Shown: positions 25,959-55,251 of the stretch, piece after piece | Numbering within the stretch: position 1 is the first letter of the stretch | Layout: every line of letters begins with the position of its first letter | Source: a phage | DNA: 64,000 nucleotides | Sequence record: OZ346219.1 | Strand: one strand, 5' to 3' | The notes under the pieces: model-generated | Databases searched by the model: none | The model's input: only the letters and a program-made list of their open reading frames with translations | Told to the model about the DNA's origin: nothing | Position numbers and translations under genes: made by a program

Positions 25959-25987
25959 ATTATGATATACCCTATTCCGGTTGTCAA
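25959..25987 (-). promoter_or_regulatory. Sigma70-like early promoter
   Basis: rc: TTGACA-17-CATAAT. Confidence 0.5.
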
Positions 25988-25992
25988 CACCT

Positions 25993-26024
25993 AAAAACGA
26001 AAAAGCCACCCTTTCGGATGGCTT
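25993..26024 (-). terminator. Rho-independent terminator
   Basis: AGCCAUCCGAAAGGGUGGCU hairpin + UUUUUCGUUUUU. Confidence 0.6.
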
Positions 26025-26030
26025 TTGATT

Positions 26031-26256
26031 ATATTTTATTCACGTCCATTTGTATAGTAGTGTTTGAATCGACCTTTGCTAAACTAGTTAAACATAGTAA
26101 CCAATTCACCATCCCTTTCCAATGATAACCCTTCCTCGTCTTAGACGGGTCTTCCGATTCGGCAGTAATTGAACACGCGAAAGTATGAGGAAGCCAAATA
26201 GTTGTGTTAATGCTAGTATTCTTTTACTTCTGGTATGCATCCCACGGTGACTAACA
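26031..26256 (-). other. About 225-nt non-coding stretch with nested inverted repeats (candidate structured RNA, not a tRNA)
   Basis: No ORF of 60 aa or more; CTTCCTC...GAGGAAG long-range complementarity and internal hairpins; no canonical T-loop. Confidence 0.25.
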
Positions 26257-26656
26257 TTAAGACAGTCGAGTGAGTTTATAAATTGTTTTAAAACATAGAG
26301 CTTTGATATCGTCTAAAACGCTCTGTAACGAGCTATCAACATCATTATAAATCTCACTAGCCATTTGCGTTAACTCTTGCAAATAGGCAATTTCGCTAAT
26401 CTCCTTGCGGACGACCAACGTTGGCTGATAACGACCAGTGATCCCAATATTGGTTTCAGTGAAATCATCAACCAATTCTTGCATTTCAAGATAGAACTCT
26501 TCTAGAGCCTTATGTTTTGCATAAGATCCAGGACCAGTTACCCCAAAATGCGCAGAATGCATATAAGTAACACTCATCAGACATTCACCGATAAAGCGGT
26601 CAACTTTATTAGCTTTCCCCTCTTCGGACGTCTTTAGAAAATCAATGAATTTCATG
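26257..26656 (-). CDS. Hypothetical protein (133 aa)
   Basis: MKFIDFLKTSEEGK... with GGAGAA SD; downstream of late-promoter-like TATAAATA. Confidence 0.5.
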
Positions 26657-26944
26657 TTCTCTATTCTCCATATTATGCAACATAACAAACTGTTGTGCGG
26701 CATATTCCCCCATAATAAAACACTGCTTAGAATCCATACATTTACTACGAGCATACATCTTCATAATATGGGCATGAAATTTCTGGCTGGTTTCAATGGA
26801 AGGAGATATTTTGTTTACATATACTATCATTGCACCGTCGAAATAATCAGTAAAGTCACCAGTTGGATCATATTGATCAGCACTGACACTTCCGACCGCA
26901 GTCAAGCATATTGCCGCTGTTAGAGTTTTACGAATAAATGACAT
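26642..26944 (-). CDS. Secreted protein, possible RI-like antiholin (lysis inhibition)
   Basis: Signal-peptide-like N-terminus MSFIRKTLTAAICLTAVGSVSA; C-terminal C-x5-C-x3-GEYAAQ resembles T4 RI C-x5-C-x3-GAEMAQ; about 100 aa. Confidence 0.45.
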   Translation of the reverse strand: MSFIRKTLTAAICLTAVGSVSADQYDPTGDFTDYFDGAMIVYVNKISPSIETSQKFHAHIMKMYARSKCMDSKQCFIMGEYAAQQFVMLHNMENREHEIH

Positions 26945-26977
26945 AAGTCATTCCCCCAGATTTAAAATATTCAGTTA

Positions 26978-26985
26978 TATTTATA
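26978..26985 (-). promoter_or_regulatory. T4-type late promoter TATAAATA (minus strand) inside the loop of a 9-bp inverted repeat
   Basis: Plus strand tatttata at 26978-26985; flanking CCCCAGATT / AATCTGGGG arms. Confidence 0.5.
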
Positions 26986-27012
26986 ATCTGGGGCTTTATT
27001 TATGATTAACTC

Positions 27013-27609
27013 TTAGTTGGTAGTGCCATCAATAAAATGTTTACGGCACACAGAAACATATTTATCCTCTGCACCAACTTCGATTTGAGCACCATCGCGA
27101 ATAACATTACCCTCTTTATCTACACGAAGGACCATTGTTGCTTTCTTGCCACAATGACAAATACCCTTCATTTCGACCAGTTTATCAGCAAATGCCATCA
27201 ATGCCGCAGATCCTTCAAATAGATTGCCCTGAAAGTCAGTGCGAAGGCCATAGCACAGTACAGGGATATTTGCATCATCAACAAGCGCACACAAGCCTAA
27301 AACATGCTCTTTAGTCATAAATTGGGCTTCATCTACAAATACAGCATCAGGACGCCAGAGATCTGGTCTACGCTTACCTAACGATTCACGATAAACCAAG
27401 TCGAAAAGATCATCCGATTCCGTGAAGGTGATTGCGGGAGCACTTAGACCAATTCGTGAAACAACTTCACTTTCTGAATCTCGATTATCAATCGCTGGCT
27501 TAAGAATTAATACTCGCATATCACGTTCGGTATAGTTATAAGCACTTTGTAACAGAGAAGTTGATTTGCCAGCGTTCATAGATGCATAGTAGAAATATAG
27601 TTGCGCCAT
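27013..27609 (-). CDS. tk: Thymidine kinase
   Basis: MAQLYFYYASMNAGKSTSLLQ...CYGLRTDFQG...SVCRKH matches bacterial/T4 Tdk throughout. Confidence 0.9.
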   Translation of the reverse strand: MAQLYFYYASMNAGKSTSLLQSAYNYTERDMRVLILKPAIDNRDSESEVVSRIGLSAPAITFTESDDLFDLVYRESLGKRRPDLWRPDAVFVDEAQFMTKEHVLGLCALVDDANIPVLCYGLRTDFQGNLFEGSAALMAFADKLVEMKGICHCGKKATMVLRVDKEGNVIRDGAQIEVGAEDKYVSVCRKHFIDGTTN

Positions 27610-27902
27610 TAATTAATCTCCAAAAATCCAGCAAGACCTAAACCGATATAAGTCCAGATACAAAGGAAAAAGAAGCAAACACCCATAGCAAAGATAAATC
27701 CGCGTAGTGTCTTTGGATAACCTACCCAATATTCCCGACCATCTTCTAACCGGATCAACTTATTGCCTTGCGAGTCCATATCAACTACAACATGTTTATT
27801 TCGAGATTGCAATAGATATTGTTTTACAATCTCTACACCCGACATAATAACAATAACGAAAATAAAAATCCACACAACAAGATTAATGATAGTCTCAAGC
27901 AT
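27609..27902 (-). CDS. Hypothetical membrane protein (two hydrophobic segments)
   Basis: 97-aa ORF. Confidence 0.45.
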   Translation of the reverse strand: MLETIINLVVWIFIFVIVIMSGVEIVKQYLLQSRNKHVVVDMDSQGNKLIRLEDGREYWVGYPKTLRGFIFAMGVCFFFLCIWTYIGLGLAGFLEIN

Positions 27903-28137
27903 TTTCTATCACCTCCACCCAATCAGGCGTTTCCTGAAAGACTCCTTCGCCTTCATGATGGTCGCAACCTTTATTGCTGCAATACATCCACCAATCCCAC
28001 ATTCCCCACGGTAAACGCTGCATATCGTCGTTACAGCAAGTGAAGATGATAGGCCAACCACATCTAACACATCGGCAGTTTTCTTTCATGTGAGCGGTAT
28101 TAGGCTTCTTCATAGATGACTCCAATATAATCGACAT
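27895..28137 (-). CDS. Cys/Trp-rich small protein
   Basis: 80-aa ORF with CRCVRCGW...CC...CSNKGCDHHEG. Confidence 0.4.
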   Translation of the reverse strand: MSIILESSMKKPNTAHMKENCRCVRCGWPIIFTCCNDDMQRLPWGMWDWWMYCSNKGCDHHEGEGVFQETPDWVEVIENA

Positions 28138-28764: not shown

Positions 28765-29124
28765 TTAGTCACGGGAAGACAACCCAGCCATAAAACGGCT
28801 TAACAGTGTGTCGCGATAAGCAAAGCATAATTGCTTATCAGGGGCAGTATCACACAGGTTACGTTTTGTTTTAGCAAAGCTGGCAATACTCAGATCCCAC
28901 GCTCGATTTTTTCGTTTTTCGTCTCGACCTTGTTTGTATGCTTCATCAAGTTCGAGCGCGATAAAATCACTACACATGTTATCATCATCACAGAAAGTTT
29001 TAATGATCTTTTTGTTGATCTCAAATCCTTTGTATTCAAACTTTGGATAAGGGCGCTCATTACTAGCAAGCGCACCAGCAGAGAACATCATAGCAATCAT
29101 AGCAATTATTGTCAACTTTTTCAT
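28765..29124 (-). CDS. Secreted/periplasmic hypothetical protein
   Basis: Signal peptide MKKLTIIAMIAMMFSAGALA; 4 Cys in mature part. Confidence 0.5.
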   Translation of the reverse strand: MKKLTIIAMIAMMFSAGALASNERPYPKFEYKGFEINKKIIKTFCDDDNMCSDFIALELDEAYKQGRDEKRKNRAWDLSIASFAKTKRNLCDTAPDKQLCFAYRDTLLSRFMAGLSSRD

Positions 29125-30598: not shown

Positions 30599-30627
30599 AT
30601 ATTACTACCCCCGTTTTGTTGTGTCAA
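30599..30627 (-). promoter_or_regulatory. Sigma70-like early promoter with palindrome over -10
   Basis: rc: TTGACA-17-TAATAT; GGGGGTAGTAATATACCCCC. Confidence 0.5.
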
Positions 30628-36189: not shown

Positions 36190-36408
36190 TTATTTATATC
36201 GCTTTCTATCGCGACGTTTTTGGTCTTCTTCCTTGATAGAGTTAAATGCATCAAAAAGACACATGACACTAATAATAAACATAACCGTATTTTCTACGAT
36301 ATCCCACGGCTTCGCATCAGTACAGATCCCCCAAACGGTAAGAAATGCAAATAAGGCAGAAGAGATCACAAGAATGATACTTGCTAAGATATAAAAAGTC
36401 ATTTTCAT
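36190..36408 (-). CDS. Small hydrophobic membrane protein
   Basis: 72 aa. Confidence 0.4.
   Translation of the reverse strand: MKMTFYILASIILVISSALFAFLTVWGICTDAKPWDIVENTVMFIISVMCLFDAFNSIKEEDQKRRDRKRYK
36191..36198 (-). promoter_or_regulatory. T4-type late promoter TATAAATA (minus strand)
   Basis: Plus strand tatttata at 36191-36198, overlapping stop of ORF 36190..36408. Confidence 0.45.
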
Positions 36409-42365: not shown

Positions 42366-42839
42366 CTATTTGTTAAGACCTTTAAAGCCAAACACTTTCT
42401 TTAATGCATGTTCGGTGATGATCTTAAACTCCATGTTATGCTTTTGGCATAATTTCACGGCAGCTAACCATTTTTCAGTATTTTTTGTGTATGTCCATAC
42501 TTCATGCATATATCGTTGCTTTGTCTTCGCGGTCATTCTTTTTGGCTTTTCCGGTGGCCTTGTCTCTTTAGCTGGTTTAACTTCCCATAAATGCTCCTTG
42601 CCATCATCAAACTTAACGTAAAAATCCATAAAGTATCTGTGTCTTTTCCCGTCTGTTGATGACTCATAAGGAATTACTACGGTCTCAGATCCCCATTTTG
42701 CAACTCTAGGATTGCGGTCTAAAAATTTCATTATATGTAATTCCCAACTTGACCTGTAGACGATTTTTTTCAGGTCGCCTTTATACTTCTCCGGGTTTTC
42801 AGGTCTATATTTACCCTTATATGTGTTGCAATTACCCAT
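42366..42839 (-). CDS. 4: Head completion protein gp4
   Basis: YKGKYRPENPEKYKGDLKKIVYRSSWE...WEVKP matches T4 gp4 (YKGKFNPKNRKKYVGDLNNITYRSSWE...). Confidence 0.8.
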   Translation of the reverse strand: MGNCNTYKGKYRPENPEKYKGDLKKIVYRSSWELHIMKFLDRNPRVAKWGSETVVIPYESSTDGKRHRYFMDFYVKFDDGKEHLWEVKPAKETRPPEKPKRMTAKTKQRYMHEVWTYTKNTEKWLAAVKLCQKHNMEFKIITEHALKKVFGFKGLNK

Positions 42840-43534
42840 TATACCACCTTCTTCTTGCAGTTGTCACCATGCCATCTAACATAATTTCCCTGATTGGCTG
42901 TTTTTCCACAATGAGGACAGGTGAAATACGGACGAGACTTTGACAATTCACTATATTTTTGTTTCATTTCTGGCGTGTTATGAATACGTTTCCATTTCTC
43001 TACGTTTTCTTGTGACAACTTTCTACCCTTACCCGCTTTAGAGATGTTGTCTCTCCATTCTTGTGTAATTTCTCTTGACGCAATATTTCTTTTATGTTCT
43101 TCTGTAAACACTCTACCTTTTAATGAAGCAGATAATTTCTGTCGATGTTCCTCAGATAATTTAATTCCTTTTCTCTTTCCTTTAGTTGCTTCTGATATTC
43201 TGCGTCTAGTCTCTTCGGATCTTTTTCTTCCTGTATGAAATTTTCTTGAAGTCTCGACCGCAAGTTTTCTTACCCACTCAAATTGTTTATTGTTATAGTT
43301 GGTAGACCCCATCAATATTTTCGCCGCATGTACAATTCCGTGATGTGTTGGATGCATTTTTGCTAAAAGTTGATGAGCAACAAAATGTTCAGACCCCGTT
43401 AACTCAACTATATTTTCTGGACTATCATCACCTCCCATACAACGAGGAATAATATGATGTTTTTCTTTATATCCTTCAAGCGTTCTATGCTTTGCGCGTT
43501 CAATTAATCGATCATAATGTTTTTGATAGTCCAT
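42839..43534 (-). CDS. HNH homing endonuclease with NUMOD-like repeats
   Basis: HHIIPRCMGGDDSPENIVELTGSEHFVAH HNH core plus repeated TGRKRSEETRRRIS / LSEEHRQKLS modules. Confidence 0.75.
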   Translation of the reverse strand: MDYQKHYDRLIERAKHRTLEGYKEKHHIIPRCMGGDDSPENIVELTGSEHFVAHQLLAKMHPTHHGIVHAAKILMGSTNYNNKQFEWVRKLAVETSRKFHTGRKRSEETRRRISEATKGKRKGIKLSEEHRQKLSASLKGRVFTEEHKRNIASREITQEWRDNISKAGKGRKLSQENVEKWKRIHNTPEMKQKYSELSKSRPYFTCPHCGKTANQGNYVRWHGDNCKKKVV

Positions 43535-43549
43535 TTTAGCACCCTTTAT

Positions 43550-43557
43550 TATAAATA
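43550..43557 (+). promoter_or_regulatory. T4-type late promoter TATAAATA upstream of gene 53
   Basis: Exact TATAAATA about 33 nt before gp53 ATG. Confidence 0.6.
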
Positions 43558-43589
43558 CATAATACTATTTATCAATTGAGGGTGCTAAA

Positions 43590-44144
43590 ATGCTCTTTTC
43601 TTTCTTCCCTGCCATTGAATACAACGGCAAGATGATTACTGACATTGTGCGCAATTACCGCGCATATTTCAACGCAATAATTTCTGATTATAACATACAA
43701 ACATATTACATTCAAGGGAGTCCACGACCGGAACAAGTTGCATATGAAGTATACGGAAACCAACAACTTTATTGGATCTTGCTGATGCTTAATGACGTAT
43801 ACGATCCGTTCCATGACTGGATCACCGATCAAGAGACAGCATATGAATCAGCCGAACAGCGATATGCAAATGTAGGAGGAAATCAAGTATTATACCACGT
43901 TGATATTGACGGAAACAAGTATTGGAATCTTACCGAATATCCGAAAGGATCAAGCAATTGGTATGATAAAGGGGATATTCATCATCGTCATTTGCAGTTT
44001 CAAGGTGCACTATCGGCAGTAGACACACTGGAAGATGCGATTCTCCGCAATGAGGAACGACGCAAGATCAAGATCATAGATCCTACACAAATTAAACAAT
44101 TTATTAACGCATTCATTCGAGAAATGGAAAAGGCTGATGTGTAA
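43590..44144 (+). CDS. 53: Baseplate wedge protein gp53
   Basis: TYYIQGSPRPEQVAYEVYGNQQLYWILLMLNDVYDPFHDWIT matches T4 gp53. Confidence 0.85.
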   Translation: MLFSFFPAIEYNGKMITDIVRNYRAYFNAIISDYNIQTYYIQGSPRPEQVAYEVYGNQQLYWILLMLNDVYDPFHDWITDQETAYESAEQRYANVGGNQVLYHVDIDGNKYWNLTEYPKGSSNWYDKGDIHHRHLQFQGALSAVDTLEDAILRNEERRKIKIIDPTQIKQFINAFIREMEKADV

Positions 44145-46823: not shown

Positions 46824-48724
46824 CAAAGCAAAAGATTACACAAATTCCTGATATTTTTAATGCTGCTACATTCGATGAAATTAAAAGCGCATTAACAGAC
46901 TGGATGAGAAACCAGGAAGAATTTAAAGATTTTGATTTTAATGGTGCTGGTATTAACGTATTGATGGACTTGCTCGCATATAACACTCTGTATATTCAGC
47001 AATTCGCTAACGCCGCGCTATATGAATCTTTTATCAGAACGGCAATTAAGCGTAGTTCAGTTGTTCAAGCCGCGCAAGATTTAGGATATTTGCCAGCAAG
47101 TAAAACTAGTGCATCGACTACAATTATGTTGCACGTAACACATCCGCGAAATCCGGCAAGTATTCGAATCCCACGAGGAACTAAATTTATTGCAAGTGTG
47201 GATCGCCAGACTTCTTACCCGTTTGTGACTACAGAAGACGTTGTGAGCGTTTTAGGTTCAAATGGTTTATATACGCCTATGCTTAAAGTCGCACAAGGTC
47301 GTATTGTTCGTACAGAAATGTTATTTGATCCGAAGAAACAAATTCTGATCCGCGATCCTGATATTGACCGCGCTCAGGTTAAGTTGTGGGTAGATGGTGC
47401 TGAATGGAAAGACTGGACGCGAGAAAGTATTGTTAATGCAACTGGCGCTAGTAATATTTTCTATATGCGTGAAACCGTAGACGGACATACTGAAATTTTC
47501 TTTGGTGAGGGTGAATCAACTTTATCTGCCGCTGGCGGTGCACTGGAAGCAAATTATATTGGTGGACTTAAGCCGTCAACTGGTGCTAATATTGTTATCG
47601 AATATATCAGCACTAAAGGCGCGGAAGCAAACGGTTCAGTTAATTTCACATACGCGGATACATTGGCATCAATTTCTATTGTTAAAATTATTGAGAATCC
47701 GACAAATGATCGTGATTATGTCGGTGCAGATGGTGGTGGTGATCCTGAATCAATCGAACGTATCCGTGAACTTGCTCCGGTAATGCGTGAATCTCAGCGT
47801 CGTTGTGTGACTGCTTCCGACTATGAGGCTTTTGTGTCTAGCCGTTTTGGTAGTATTGTTCAGGCGGTACAATGTTTCACCGACCGAGAAAAACCGGGTT
47901 ATGCTTTTGTTGCTGTTAAGCCTAAATCTGGCTTGCGCTTGACAACCGTTCAAAAAGAAGATATGCGGGATTATCTGGCAAAATATAACCTTGCCCCTAT
48001 CACGCCGAGCATCATTGACCCTAACTATCTGTATATTAAACAGAATATTAAAGTTTCCTATTCAATCAACGACTTGTCAGAATCAGAGCAGTGGTTGCGC
48101 GGTGCGGTTATTGATCAGATTGATGCATATTATACCGACGAAGTGGAAATTTTTAACCAGACCTTTAGTAAGTCTAAAATGCTTGCGCGTATTGACAAAG
48201 CTGATGTATCTGTGATAGGTTCTAGTGCAGAAATCGAGATGGTGCGAGAGATCGACAACTTCTATAAAGCACCGATGGCTGGAATCAAGTTTTTAAACCA
48301 GTATAAGAGCGGAATCAAGTCTAGTTCATTCAACTTCGAAAAGGACGACAAGCAATATCCAATCCATTATGTAAGTACAGAAATGAACAAAGAATCCGGT
48401 TTAGCTAAATTGCTGGTTGGACCTTTCCCTGTTGATTCTACAATCGCTTTACCGCACTATTCCGGCACTGATTTTGATAAAGAGGTTATTGACGGGGCGG
48501 ACCTATACTTTGAGGTTGGAGAGGTTCAGCATTATGACGACCTTATTTCATGGGATCTGGGTAAACTGAATATCAATAGCGATCGCTTTACTGGTTCATA
48601 TATTGAGTTGACAGCTAAACCGATTGCTGATAACATCTTTACTAAAGACGGTTCTTTGATCGTGTTTGAAAACGATCTCCGTCCTCAGTACACAACTATT
48701 AGTCTGGAGGCAATTGCTCAATGA
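46820..48724 (+). CDS. 6: Baseplate wedge protein gp6
   Basis: [24 protein letters not shown]... and [20 protein letters not shown] match T4 gp6. Confidence 0.9.
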
Positions 48725-51700
48725 TTAAAGCGCCTAGTGTAACTAGCTTGACAATAGAAAAATTGTCTGCTAATCAGGCGTATATCACATGGGATGACGT
48801 AGGCGAAAACTTCTTTTATTTTGTGGAGTTAGCCGAAACCAGAACACGAGACGGGGAGATCATCCCCGTCGATGAGTTAAGCTGGGTAAACCTGGGATAT
48901 ACTGCCGAACAAAACTGGTTTGAGGATAAAAACCTTTTTCCAGAATATTATTACAAGTTTCGTGTAGCAGTAGCCGCAGAAGGATTTGAACAAAGTAAAT
49001 GGGTTGAGACAGAAGAGTTTCAGACATTTAAAACAAACGCATATAATTTTTCTATGATGCGAGAGTTCAACCTTGCAAACGAGTTTATAAAGGAAAAATT
49101 TACATACGATAATCGAGAGTATGTCAAGTTTAATACTGACCTGATTCAAGCATCATTGATGAAGGAAGATTTTGTCTTTAGTCCTGAATATGCAAACATG
49201 ACAAATATCTCAAACTACATTGTAGTTGATGAGAACTTTCATGAAATACAGGACCACATAGAAAAAGTTTGTACTGATATAAACCGCACTATGTTAGCGG
49301 AAATGAACGGTGTTTTGTACCTTTTCGAACGGTTCCAGCCGATCGTGAAAGTGTCAAATGATAAAGGCCAATCATGGAAAGCATACAAGGCTTTTAATGA
49401 CCGTGTAGGCAATCCAGTTTCCCGTACATGCGTTTATCAGTCTAAAACCACTACTTACGTTTTAGGATATGATCGAATCTTTTACGGACGACAAGCGAGC
49501 GATACTCGATGGAGAGCGGACGATGTTCGATTTAGTGATGATACGATCACTTTTGCAAAGGTCGGTGACGAAAACGATTTAGGCTTTGACGTTGAGGTCT
49601 TTGGTGTATTTTCCAGATTAACAGGTGATACCACAAAATACGCCGAAGCTATGGCGTGTAGTGATGACTATTTGTGGGTTGGTGCTAAAGATGTTATTCG
49701 CAGGATTCGTCTTAAGAATACTCCTGTTGATACCGTACAGGGTTCGCCTACGTTTGGAGAAAAAATATTCGATCCTGATGTTATCCGAGTAACAGGAAAT
49801 GATAAAGCTGTCATTCAGAAAATGGATGTGATCGACGGTAAATTGCTTGTATTTGTTACGGGTGAAGTTAAACAGCGTTATCAAGATCCAACTAAACCAG
49901 AAAACGTTGTTCCGTCAGATGATGCTGGTGTATACTTAATAGGGAGTGATGGTCTGTCTTTTCAGAGAGTATTTGGCAACACTCCGCAGGAAAGGGAATA
50001 TATTCAGCATGGGTTCAGTAATATGTCAACCAATGGTGATGAGGTGTTCATAAGCCATTATAATCATCACTTCGAAAGCATTTTACCTGATCCAGAAACT
50101 GCCGAGAAATATGAATTGGGCGAAGCTGTAAAATATTCTCAGGAGCCAACTTATCTAACTGATAAGAAAATACATCAAACTACTTTCAGAGCAAGTTATG
50201 ATGATTTGCGTATTTGGGAGTTAGGACCGCAAGCGTATTATAACGAGGCTGATTATACATGGATGCGTCGAAACGGTGTCCGTGTGTGGATCACAAATGA
50301 TAATCGCCCGTTGGTTGTTTATCCAGAGGTTATCTATACTCAAGAAGTTGATACGTCTGGCATTCTTGACCAAAATAGGGTCAACCGAGAAGTTTATGAT
50401 AAAGGGACCGTGACCTGTTATCTTAACAATGTTAAATTTGAAGGATTCAAACAATATGCATCCGGTGTAATGTTCCATAAAAACACAGGAGAGATCATAG
50501 GATTCTATCAATTTAATTATCGTGTTCGTGATCAGGTTGGTGTATATTGGAAACCTACAAATGTAGCATTTGTTGCTGAATTGCAAAATCAGGTTCGAGA
50601 GGTTCCCTGGGTTCCGGTTCACTACGATCGAGAGCAAGATCCAGATTTGCGGCCTTTACTGAATAAGATGACGCCGGATAGCTTTTTACTTGAGAACGAA
50701 AATTTCAGAAAATTCTCTGAATATTATCTGCAATTCTTAAGCGATGGTTCAGGAACATATTATAATAAACTAAAAAATCTGATTAAAAACAAATATCCAC
50801 GCGAGAAAGATGCATATGAGTATCTTTGGTCAGAGATGAACAAACGAAACATATATGCAGATAAAAACAAGCGAGATGCGGTAGTAAGATTCTTTGAATC
50901 CCGCAAATCAGATTTTTATTCCACTAAGGGTGTGGAGGCTTCTTATAAGTTCTTGTTTAAGTTACTTTATAATGAAGATGTGGAAATTGAGGTTGAATCA
51001 CAAGCCGGACTAGAGTATGATATTGTTGTTAGTTCAACGAACATTGACGAGGATATCGTAGGTCGCACGATTTATACTCCGACCGGACGGGCTAACGTGA
51101 CTTACCTTGAAAGGGAATATGAAGGTGGTCGCCTACGCTGGCGAGTAACCATTCATAACCTGATCGGGCGGTTCGAAGAAGGTCAAGTGATCAAATCAGA
51201 GAAAACAGCGTTTGAAGGGATGATCCTTGTTGGTGTTCGTGGTAAAGAGTTGTTGAGTAGTTCAATCGACTATATCAACCGCTCACGAAGCCAATACACC
51301 ATGAAGATTAAAAGTGCATTGCCAGTTTCGCGCTATGCAAATGATGTAATGCGATTCGTTCATCCTGTCGGCTTTGGGTTTATCGGTGTTACCCTGCTTA
51401 CAATGTTCATTAACAGCGGGTTAAGCATGAAGCACACCGAGACTATAATTCAATCTCTGAAAAATTATAAGTTTGACAGCGGATTGCCTAGCGTGTATCC
51501 TGATCGGGTGGCAGACCTTGACGTTGACGGAAACATTAAGAAAGACCCGCTTACCGGAAAAGCATTATATTTGACTTCACCTTTAATTGGTGAAGAATTT
51601 CCGGTTCCCCCTGAATATGATCAGGAGAACAGCGAATTGTTCCACGGACTTAAAGCAAGCGAACGAAGATTTGCAATGAGTCCACTGTTTGACCAGTCGG

Positions 51701-53482: not shown

Positions 53483-54321
53483 TGGCACGACTTTCTAAAC
53501 AAGAACAAAAATTACACGATCGGGTGATGGAGTTGATTAATTCAGATCGCCCATTGACATATGAAGAAAAAGAATTTTGCTATAATAACTATCATGGCGA
53601 TGGTCTAGGCGGTTCAGGTGCATTCTTTACCCCAGAAGGGCTTGCACGGGATTTTACCATCGATGCACATTGCACAGGAAAAGTATTAGATCTTTGTGCT
53701 GGGATCGGTCGCTTATCTTTTTGTATGTTACATCGTTGTAAGCCAGAAAAGATCGTATGCATCGAACTCAATCCAGAATTTGCGCGGATTGGCAAGCGAC
53801 TATTACCGGAGGCAGAATGGATCACCAGCGATGTATTCGAATTTGAGTCAAACGAAAAATTCGATGTGGTGATCAGCAATCCACCCTTCGGGAAAATCAA
53901 TACAACCGACACAAAGGATGTATTTGAGTACACTGGCGGTGAGTTTGAATTTAAGGTTATGACGCTAGGGCAAAAGTTTGCTGATGTTGGCTATTTTATT
54001 GTTCCTGTGGGTTCCGCTGGTTTTGCTTATTCCGGCAGACCTTATTATGACGGGACCATGAAGTCTAATAAATATCTAAAATGGAGCAAACAAACTGGTT
54101 TGGTGACTTATGCCGGATGTGGGATCGATACATCAATCTATCGCGATGAATGGCACAGTACCAACGTTTTAACAGAAGTGGTTGAGGTTCGGTATTACGA
54201 GAAAGAAGCCGTAGAAGCGCCTAAATCACGCCCTAACGAACAAATAGAAGAAAGTAAGGAGATTACCTTACCGAAACAGGAAAGCGAGTCTGGGACGCTC
54301 TCAGATTTGTTTGACATTTAA
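53482..54321 (+). CDS. SAM-dependent methyltransferase with NPPF catalytic motif (putative N6-adenine DNA methyltransferase)
   Basis: Motif I VLDLCAGIGRL and motif IV VISNPPFG. Confidence 0.6.
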   Translation: MARLSKQEQKLHDRVMELINSDRPLTYEEKEFCYNNYHGDGLGGSGAFFTPEGLARDFTIDAHCTGKVLDLCAGIGRLSFCMLHRCKPEKIVCIELNPEFARIGKRLLPEAEWITSDVFEFESNEKFDVVISNPPFGKINTTDTKDVFEYTGGEFEFKVMTLGQKFADVGYFIVPVGSAGFAYSGRPYYDGTMKSNKYLKWSKQTGLVTYAGCGIDTSIYRDEWHSTNVLTEVVEVRYYEKEAVEAPKSRPNEQIEESKEITLPKQESESGTLSDLFDI

Positions 54322-54327
54322 TTATAA

Positions 54328-54351
54328 GCCGTCCTTGTGGGCGGCTTTTTT
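54328..54351 (+). terminator. Rho-independent terminator after methyltransferase cassette
   Basis: GCCGTCCTTGTGGGCGGC hairpin + TTTTTT. Confidence 0.6.
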
Positions 54352-54361
54352 GTATGTATTT

Positions 54362-54369
54362 TATAAATA
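54362..54369 (+). promoter_or_regulatory. T4-type late promoter TATAAATA upstream of gene 9
   Basis: Exact TATAAATA about 28 nt before gp9 ATG. Confidence 0.6.
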
Positions 54370-54396
54370 ATACATCATAACATGAGGAATTAAACA

Positions 54397-55251
54397 ATGG
54401 CACAAGTTCCAAAGAAAAGAATAGACACAGGTACTGTCGGCAATCCATCGACTGGCGATATCTTATATGATGGTGGTAATAAAATTAACGATAACTTTGA
54501 TTCAATATATGACGCATTTGCTGATCAGCGGTTTAAAGACGTAGACCACGGAGTGGGAAGAATGGTTATTCATGCAACCGGATACTATCAGAAGCATCCA
54601 CGTCAAAGCTACGCGGGTTCCGCTGTTGAGATTGGGAGTCTACACGATATCGATACAACTCAAGGCGCACTTATTGCTATTCTACCTAAAGCAAAGGTCG
54701 GCGAGGGTGTTGTATTCATAAATAGTAACGGTAGCCTTTCAACGACGACACCGCTCAATATTCGAACTCAAGCAGGTGATTCTATTAGCGGTTATTCCGG
54801 TGATGCTACAATAACACAACCATTTTCAAAAGTCACTGTTTGGTGTACTGCCGTTGAAGGTAGTCGCGTAACATGGCGATTGGGTATCGAAAGTATGTTT
54901 ACCGATACAACAACGCCATTAGATAAAACAGTTAACGTAACTGGAGTAGCAACAAACGTTGCTATTGCCGCAAAAACAGAATATGTTTCCATCAAATTAT
55001 TAACTACCGCTAGCAATACATCCGGTTCAAAAATGCGTTCAAGTGAAACGCTACTGATGATTGATTCTAAAGCCGGAAAAGTTTATGCGACGGAATATGC
55101 AGTTTTGCAGAAGACAGAAGATGAACTATACACGGTTCGTTATTTCATCGGTTCCGGCGATAAAGTATATGCAGAGTATAAGGCTACTGGCGAAAATATT
55201 CGTTTAGCAGTTAAAGCCGTAGACACTATTAAAATCGGGGTTGCTACATGA
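54397..55251 (+). CDS. 9: Baseplate wedge / long tail fibre socket protein gp9
   Basis: KKRIDTGTVGNPSTGDILYDGGNKINDNFDSIYDAFADQR and HATGYYQKH match T4 gp9. Confidence 0.85.
   Translation: MAQVPKKRIDTGTVGNPSTGDILYDGGNKINDNFDSIYDAFADQRFKDVDHGVGRMVIHATGYYQKHPRQSYAGSAVEIGSLHDIDTTQGALIAILPKAKVGEGVVFINSNGSLSTTTPLNIRTQAGDSISGYSGDATITQPFSKVTVWCTAVEGSRVTWRLGIESMFTDTTTPLDKTVNVTGVATNVAIAAKTEYVSIKLLTTASNTSGSKMRSSETLLMIDSKAGKVYATEYAVLQKTEDELYTVRYFIGSGDKVYAEYKATGENIRLAVKAVDTIKIGVAT

Follow-up and report, generated by a model that had tools for sequence, protein, structure and literature searches.

A hairpin predicted to gate translation of the antiholin gene rI in Krischvirus phages

Introduction

Several late genes of T4-like phages are controlled at the level of translation by an RNA hairpin which is coupled to a late promoter. 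This combination has been documented for T4 e, soc, 49 and I-TevI, and also for segB and mobE (PMC3014915; PMC2988022). All of these (T4 e, soc, 49, I-TevI and segB, and mobE of Aeh1) are late genes which lie within an early transcription unit, as would likewise be the case for the gene described here. In the T4 e-type design the late promoter box TATAAATA either falls within the 5' strand of the hairpin or immediately precedes it, while the 3' strand holds the Shine-Dalgarno sequence; late RNA is made without the 5' strand and can be translated. In the literature searched we found no report of gating of the e/soc type for rI or for any antiholin.

Lysis inhibition is the delay of lysis brought about by RI, a periplasmic antiholin which binds the holin T. 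For a long time a SAR domain was ascribed to T4 RI, but a 2021 study showed that the protein carries instead a signal peptide which is cleaved after A24 (PMC8385771). In T4 the rI operon is transcribed from two promoters, a late one between tk and rI.1 and an early one 3.3 kb upstream (PMC2962797). In our folding analysis the T4 rI cassette showed no hairpin which encloses the late promoter or masks the first ribosome site. For RB49, 17 late promoters were predicted by Nolan et al. 2006 (suppl. S5).

Here we describe the rI locus of a phage from a 64-kb stretch of DNA (sequence record OZ346219.1), which is called the window throughout. Structure prediction, placement and conservation suggest that it is a probable new instance of this known T4 regulatory design.

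The rI locus and its relatives

Positions 26000 to 28000 of the window were 97–98% identical to Krischvirus coliphages (RB49-like; kaaroe, ECD7 and RB49), and tk, rI and rI.-1 are annotated under the matching region in the records of all three. On the minus strand we found tk, which encodes thymidine kinase and lies upstream of rI (27013..27609; Pfam TK, E = 1.2e-51), then rI itself, which encodes the 100-aa antiholin RI (26642..26944, stop codon included) and was identified by Pfam, PHROG, PDB, BLASTP and existing annotation, and then a downstream member of the rI operon, a homologue of rI.-1 (26257..26655; Pfam DUF5856, 6.1e-21; phrog_858, 5.7e-43). The rI.-1 ORF, which is already annotated in RB49 and JSE, overlaps the rI stop by 14 nt. 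The gene order tk-rI-rI.-1 is that of T4, tk-(rI.1)-rI-rI.-1, so rI fills the same place in the genome, with tk upstream of it and rI.-1 downstream, and with a late promoter after tk in both phages; however, the small T4 gene rI.1 is absent here between tk and rI.

The ORFs of at least 130 aa between 600 and 43534 are all on the minus strand, except for one which overlaps a minus-strand ORF, and the plus-strand late block begins with gene 53 at 43590. The terminator scan found a hairpin followed by a U-tract, resembling an intrinsic terminator, at 26001..26026 (minus strand), which is likely the end of the rI/rI.-1 transcription unit; just past it lies an early promoter (25987..25959, minus strand) which is the counterpart of RB49 Pe:47746. 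On the other side of rI, a probable early promoter, TTGACA-17-TAATAT (30599..30627, minus strand), was located by its coordinate offset to RB49 Pe:52389 (score 34.8). Of the sites from which early read-through RNA is predicted to come, this promoter, approximately 3.7 kb upstream of rI, is the nearest. Between it and rI the gene strand contains only two weak 6-pair terminator candidates, and no convincing terminator.

The best sigma70-type match of the region is a different site, at 29087-29115 on the minus strand (TTGACA-17-TATGAT with an extended -10 TG, 11/12). It is situated at the very start of a 119-aa signal-peptide-like ORF (28765-29124), about 2.1 kb upstream of rI, and has no counterpart among the RB49 early promoters of Nolan 2006.

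Identity of the RI protein

An earlier note on this DNA had described the 100-aa ORF as a secreted RI-like protein with a signal-peptide-like N-terminus and a C-terminal C-x5-C-x3-G segment resembling that of T4 RI. We found that residues 4-97 match the Pfam family PF24205 (Antiholin; E = 1.6e-23), scoring 82.8 bits where the cutoff is 27, and that the ORF also matches phrog_1246 (lysis inhibition; 3.7e-26). A PDB search with the single sequence returned only T4 antiholin chains (6psk_R, E = 0.009, residues 36-93). The profile version of this search gave 1e-23, which is circular and was not counted as evidence because T4 RI sits in the profile. The alignment with T4 RI which the earlier note had suggested as a check did reveal similarity, running end to end in BLASTP at 26% identity (E = 1e-5).

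In an alignment of 9 homologues from 8 lineages the invariant columns were V41, Y42, S49, S53, F56, C69, C75 and G79. C69, C75 and G79 form the C-x5-C-x3-G segment here, and the spacing of the two cysteines ranged from 3 to 5 residues among the 9 homologues; the cysteine pair and the glycine are shared with T4 RI, which the segment resembles according to the earlier note. The ORF reads MSFIRKTLTAAICLTAVGSVSADQ...SKCMDSKQCFIMGEYAAQ... The features of residues 1-22 fit the proposed signal peptide: R5 and K6 form a candidate n-region, followed by a core of 14 small or hydrophobic residues and by VSA at 20-22 (VSA|DQ), which fits the -3/-1 rule and aligns within 2 residues of the T4 cleavage site. 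RI is thus probably exported by an N-terminal signal peptide which is cleaved after VSA22.

Judged by its sequence family, the 100-aa ORF encodes a true RI antiholin and represents, in Krischvirus, the orthologue of T4 rI, and we regard its Pfam membership as decisive for this identity. T4 RI (PDB 6PSK/6PSH, PF24205) shares with it the Pfam family, a length of approximately 100 aa and the layout of an N-terminal export signal plus a periplasmic domain of about 75 aa, although the two proteins are only 26% identical. The partner holin T is encoded both by T4 and by Krischvirus; it was searched for in RB49, as that region is beyond this window, and RB49 gene t matched Pfam Phage_holin_T at 4.5e-61. 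A role in lysis inhibition like that of T4 RI would be expected of this protein from its family, and our literature search (titles and abstracts) found no paper establishing lysis inhibition by RB49. The label given in the earlier note was right about the family and understated the case, as the gene is already known and is annotated as rI in the public records of RB49, kaaroe, ECD7, JSE and others.

The late promoter of rI

An exact match to the T4-type (gp55-dependent) late promoter box TATAAATA was found on the minus strand at 26978..26985 (read as 26985..26978), 41 nt before the rI AUG. The earlier note had claimed a late promoter upstream of rI, and two lines of evidence support this. The site is the same as RB49 Pl:48756 (48714-48756, minus strand), which was predicted by Nolan 2006, meaning that the promoter is not new. 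In addition, exact TATAAATA boxes are found 31-57 nt before rI.1 or rI in T4 (33 nt before rI.1), Karamvirus AS6, Muldoonvirus PS2, Gualtarvirus MP1 and Slopekvirus KP27, so that the position of the box before the rI cassette is conserved over six genera, Krischvirus included. The number of exact boxes in the 64-kb window (4, vs 5.8 expected) is not above chance taken alone. Late transcripts begin 6 nt after a box which spans -13 to -6, and by this rule the late transcript of rI is predicted to start at approximately 26972, within the loop of the hairpin described below.

Two further candidates were rejected. We weighed the near-box CATAAATA (~27003-26996) as another possible late promoter and set it aside because it is not kept in Krischvirus JK32. 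The exact TATAAATA at 36191-36198 (minus strand) overlaps the last codons of the ORF 36190-36408 and has no gene start after it, and is probably a chance match and not a promoter.

A hairpin covering the promoter and the ribosome site

Repeat search and RNA folding identified an imperfect inverted repeat, or RNA hairpin, at 26954..26993 (minus strand). The earlier note had placed the late promoter in the loop of a perfect 9-bp repeat. Both the box and the repeat (CCCCAGATT, 26993..26985, and AATCTGGGG, 26962..26954) are real, but the repeat extends to 17-nt arms (26954-26970 and 26977-26993; 88% complementary) with 6 nt between them, and since the arms are longer than first described, TATAAATA lies mostly in the 5' arm and internal loop, not in a free 22-nt loop; the first T of the box is the last base of the 9-bp stem. 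In the minimum free energy fold the 9-bp stem is separated by a 2x2 internal loop from a 6-bp A-U stem, which closes a 6-nt loop, and this hairpin alone has a predicted energy of -16.4 kcal/mol. The rI Shine-Dalgarno sequence, read from the sequence as GGGGG 8 nt before the AUG (26953..26957, minus strand), has 4 of its 5 Gs within the 3' arm. The 5' arm, by comparison, is upstream of the predicted late start.

Directly after the first hairpin the RNA is predicted to fold into a second small hairpin, GAAUGAC-UUAU-GUCAUUU (26935..26952, minus strand), which has the rI AUG at its loop and would be present in both early and late transcripts. The combined fold with both hairpins had a z-score of -4.4, with 1 of 200 shuffles equally good. 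Perfect hairpins of at least 9 bp are more numerous in the window than in Markov-1 random sequence (19 vs 7.8 ± 2.8 expected). The chance that such a repeat would fall in the 68-nt spacer between tk and rI is about 0.008, and the hairpin not only lies inside this spacer but spans the promoter and the Shine-Dalgarno sequence exactly. As neither element is rare alone, the case rests on their placement and conservation and not on motif counts. Rfam, searched with a permissive threshold, returned nothing beyond a snoRNA match attributable to chance (E = 1, 15.9 vs 41 bits), and no known RNA family is present at the hairpin in Rfam.

In Krischvirus, T4 (L001 ~1485-1510), PS2 (L009 ~690-715) and MP1 (L010 ~665-690), a small hairpin presents the rI AUG at its apical loop, with stems which differ between them (GAAUGAC/GUCAUUU, AGGCC/GGCCU, AGGGAC/GUCCCU and GGGC/GCCC, respectively). 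No start-codon hairpin was found at rI in AS6, KP27 or AhFM11. A hairpin of this kind may be conserved at the site where rI translation starts.

Conservation of the hairpin

We compared the hairpin between 12 Krischviruses and found that the outer stem, the box, the Shine-Dalgarno sequence and their spacing were invariant. JK32 has an RI which is only 77% identical, yet all four of these elements are unchanged in it, with a 6-nt deletion and substitutions in the spacer just upstream of the hairpin. The CCCC of the 5' arm, which is free of promoter or Shine-Dalgarno constraint, is also kept in JK32 even though adjacent bases have changed. The variable positions of the hairpin are those of the internal and apical loops, and the sole stem change, in PHB13, converts an A-U pair into G.U. 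Variable columns made up 2 of 30 paired columns vs 14 of 31 unpaired or spacer columns (Fisher P = 0.001), a P value which overstates the independence of the columns, since most of the variable ones come from JK32 alone and from one deletion event. Compensatory (double) stem changes numbered 0 in the 12 sequences, which are too similar to yield any, so the structure cannot be proven by covariation, and part of the stem is constrained in any case by the promoter box and the Shine-Dalgarno sequence. A search of IMG/VR for further relatives returned one locus only (ECD7), which added no diversity.

Outside Krischvirus, a masking hairpin at rI or rI.1 was absent in T4, AS6, MP1 and KP27 and marginal in PS2 (0.44 vs 0.51). 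Gating is therefore not family-wide in the genera sampled, and the masking hairpin appears, from these sequences, to be a Krischvirus feature.

Phage Skers (MW748999, L015 380-400) has a 12-nt deletion which removes the usual rI AUG and codons 2-4. Its rI is annotated from an in-frame ATG inside GGGGGAATGAC, 1 nt after the G run, giving a protein which begins MTRKTLT. This could be a real variant with odd spacing of the ribosome site, or it could be an assembly error.

Proposed translational gating of rI

The earlier note did not recognise that the 3' arm of the hairpin is the rI Shine-Dalgarno sequence, and it is this overlap which points to translational gating of read-through mRNA. On the basis of the predicted folds we consider it fairly probable that the hairpin is a translational gate, by which read-through mRNA made early would yield no RI and the protein would come from the late transcript. 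The gene is predicted to lie inside a long minus-strand early unit (...tk-rI-rI.-1-terminator) and would additionally have its own gp55-type late promoter. We infer that RNA reading through from tk would fold into the 40-nt hairpin (approximately -16 kcal/mol) across the promoter sequence, and as its 3' arm would pair 4 of the 5 Shine-Dalgarno Gs, rI would be poorly translated from such RNA. Late RNA starting at ~26972, in the loop, would not contain the 5' arm, and the ribosome site would open. RI would then be made late, together with its late partner, the holin T.

The calculated probability that the Shine-Dalgarno sequence is unpaired was 0.001 in the read-through RNA. For the late RNA it was about 0.29 for starts at 26971-26974, with a range of 0.16-0.29; the late transcript is therefore still partly structured at this site, which counts against gating. 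T4 gene e was used as a positive control and showed the same calculated accessibility switch: its Shine-Dalgarno sequence was fully paired when the RNA was long and open when the RNA began at the proximal late promoter, which is its published behaviour. The rI hairpin resembles the T4 e-type design in that TATAAATA is associated with the 5' strand and the Shine-Dalgarno sequence with the 3' strand, and its late RNA is predicted to be translatable in the same manner. It differs in two respects: the box occupies the internal loop and inner stem, midway along the hairpin, and not the arm which pairs with the Shine-Dalgarno sequence, and the AUG is in a second, adjacent hairpin and not in the masking stem. 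It should also be noted that gating of the T4 e type is documented, whereas the putative gate on rI is proposed from sequence and fold prediction. For Krischviruses, the literature searched yielded neither mapped transcript 5' ends nor RNA-seq or translation data. The stricter claim, that in Krischviruses the late-promoter transcript is the sole source of RI and that masking of the ribosome site by the hairpin keeps early read-through mRNA silent, has in our view slightly better than an even chance of being correct.

The main rival is that the hairpin is a terminator or 3'-end stabiliser for early tk RNA, with rI and rI.-1 transcribed from the late promoter only. The outcome, late-only RI, would be the same and the control would be transcriptional. 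Termination of tk transcripts had also been suggested in the earlier note. The base of the stem is indeed G+C-rich, and ARNold calls a terminator on the gene strand in phage G2494 (-11.16). Moreover, AS6 and KP27 have, as here, a G+C-rich hairpin and TATAAATA in the spacer before the rI cassette, and theirs is a canonical terminator hairpin with a U-tract right before the late promoter, so a terminator followed by a late promoter is an arrangement which is found in relatives. However, the hairpins of AS6 and KP27 are wholly upstream of the box and are followed by the U-tract, from which we take them to act on transcription, whereas the hairpin here has the box inside it and no U-tract, and its 3' arm is the ribosome site. 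The gene-strand tail after the stem is GGGGGAAUGACUUAUG, the hairpin was not flagged by our terminator scan, and when the supplementary tables of Nolan 2006, RB49 terminator predictions included, were searched by coordinate, no entry fell in that range. A terminator would also have no need for a 3' arm which coincides with the Shine-Dalgarno sequence or for an enclosed promoter, and we consider this explanation unlikely. On the opposite strand a T-rich tail, CTTTATTTAT, comes after the stem, and the record of TB34 annotates two terminators there on the plus strand, so the hairpin might instead be an intrinsic terminator which stops antisense RNA from entering tk, its overlap with the ribosome site being incidental. 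We found no plus-strand gene or known promoter feeding the site, given the almost uniform minus-strand orientation of the ORFs around it, and the 2x2 internal loop and A+U inner stem make a poor terminator. Such a role would leave unexplained why the arms bracket the promoter and the Shine-Dalgarno sequence exactly, and is very unlikely.

The two remaining explanations, action at the DNA level and pure chance, are less likely. The promoter box is within the repeat, and I-TevI provides a precedent for DNA-level control in its autorepression via an operator which overlaps its late promoter (PMC2988022), so the repeat could act on the late promoter as a cruciform or as a protein-binding palindrome. 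Occlusion of the promoter by the hairpin, as the earlier note had it, would need a DNA cruciform, for which we found no evidence; the arms are imperfect, and short for a cruciform to be extruded, the palindrome has no DNA-binding protein linked to it, and the arms coincide with an RNA-level signal, the Shine-Dalgarno sequence, with no sequence feature favouring a DNA reading. We regard this explanation as highly improbable. It is quite unlikely, too, that the hairpin is a functionless palindrome which arose by chance in an A+T-rich spacer and was kept by kinship and by constraint on the promoter and the Shine-Dalgarno sequence. About 8 perfect 9-bp hairpins are expected per 64 kb and there is no covariation, both of which would fit chance; the low probability of a repeat in the 68-nt spacer, the retention in JK32 of the unconstrained CCCC and the z-score of the fold argue against it. 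So does gene 53, in the same window, whose late promoter has the same layout as that of rI and was counted in favour of gating.

Several deposited Krischvirus genomes label the rI hairpin as a terminator, on differing strands: TB34 (L007 954-1002), G2494 (L018 148-187), G37-3 and G5211. These labels are probably misreadings of a hairpin which masks the ribosome site, and translational gating as proposed here would correct them.

The importance of this locus is modest, as the gene and its late promoter are already public and the regulatory design is textbook knowledge from T4. Should the gate prove real, a lysis-timing gene would join the hairpin-gated late genes, and rI would be the first antiholin shown to have an RNA gate of the T4 e/soc type. 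There would also be a lineage-specific difference from T4 in the timing of RI production: Krischviruses would be competent for lysis inhibition only late, unlike T4, in which the rI cassette is unmasked. This would bear on when RB49-like phages, several of which are therapeutic candidates, can read the superinfection signal.

Other late promoters in the window

The late promoter of gene 53 is TATAAATA at 43550-43557 on the plus strand, for the gene starting at 43590. It lies within a perfect 13-bp inverted repeat, ATTTTAGCACCCT (43533-43545) and AGGGTGCTAAAAT (43579-43591), whose 33-nt spacer contains two back-to-back promoters; the other is a sigma70-like TTGATA-16-TATAAT (43575..43548, minus strand) for an ORF resembling a NUMOD3 endonuclease (42839-43534). 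The 13-bp arms hold the Shine-Dalgarno sequence and AUG of both divergent genes, which is why the two have an identical translation start, AGGGTGCTAAAATG. An RNA which crossed the whole of 43533-43591 would bury either start site.

A further late TATAAATA is found on the plus strand at 54362, after a strong terminator hairpin, AAGCCGTCC...GGGCGGCTTTTTT (region 54300-54400). This box is in the loop of a 7-bp A+T repeat, ATGTATT/AATACAT, which does not reach the ribosome site, and late boxes here may often be surrounded by short A+T palindromes.
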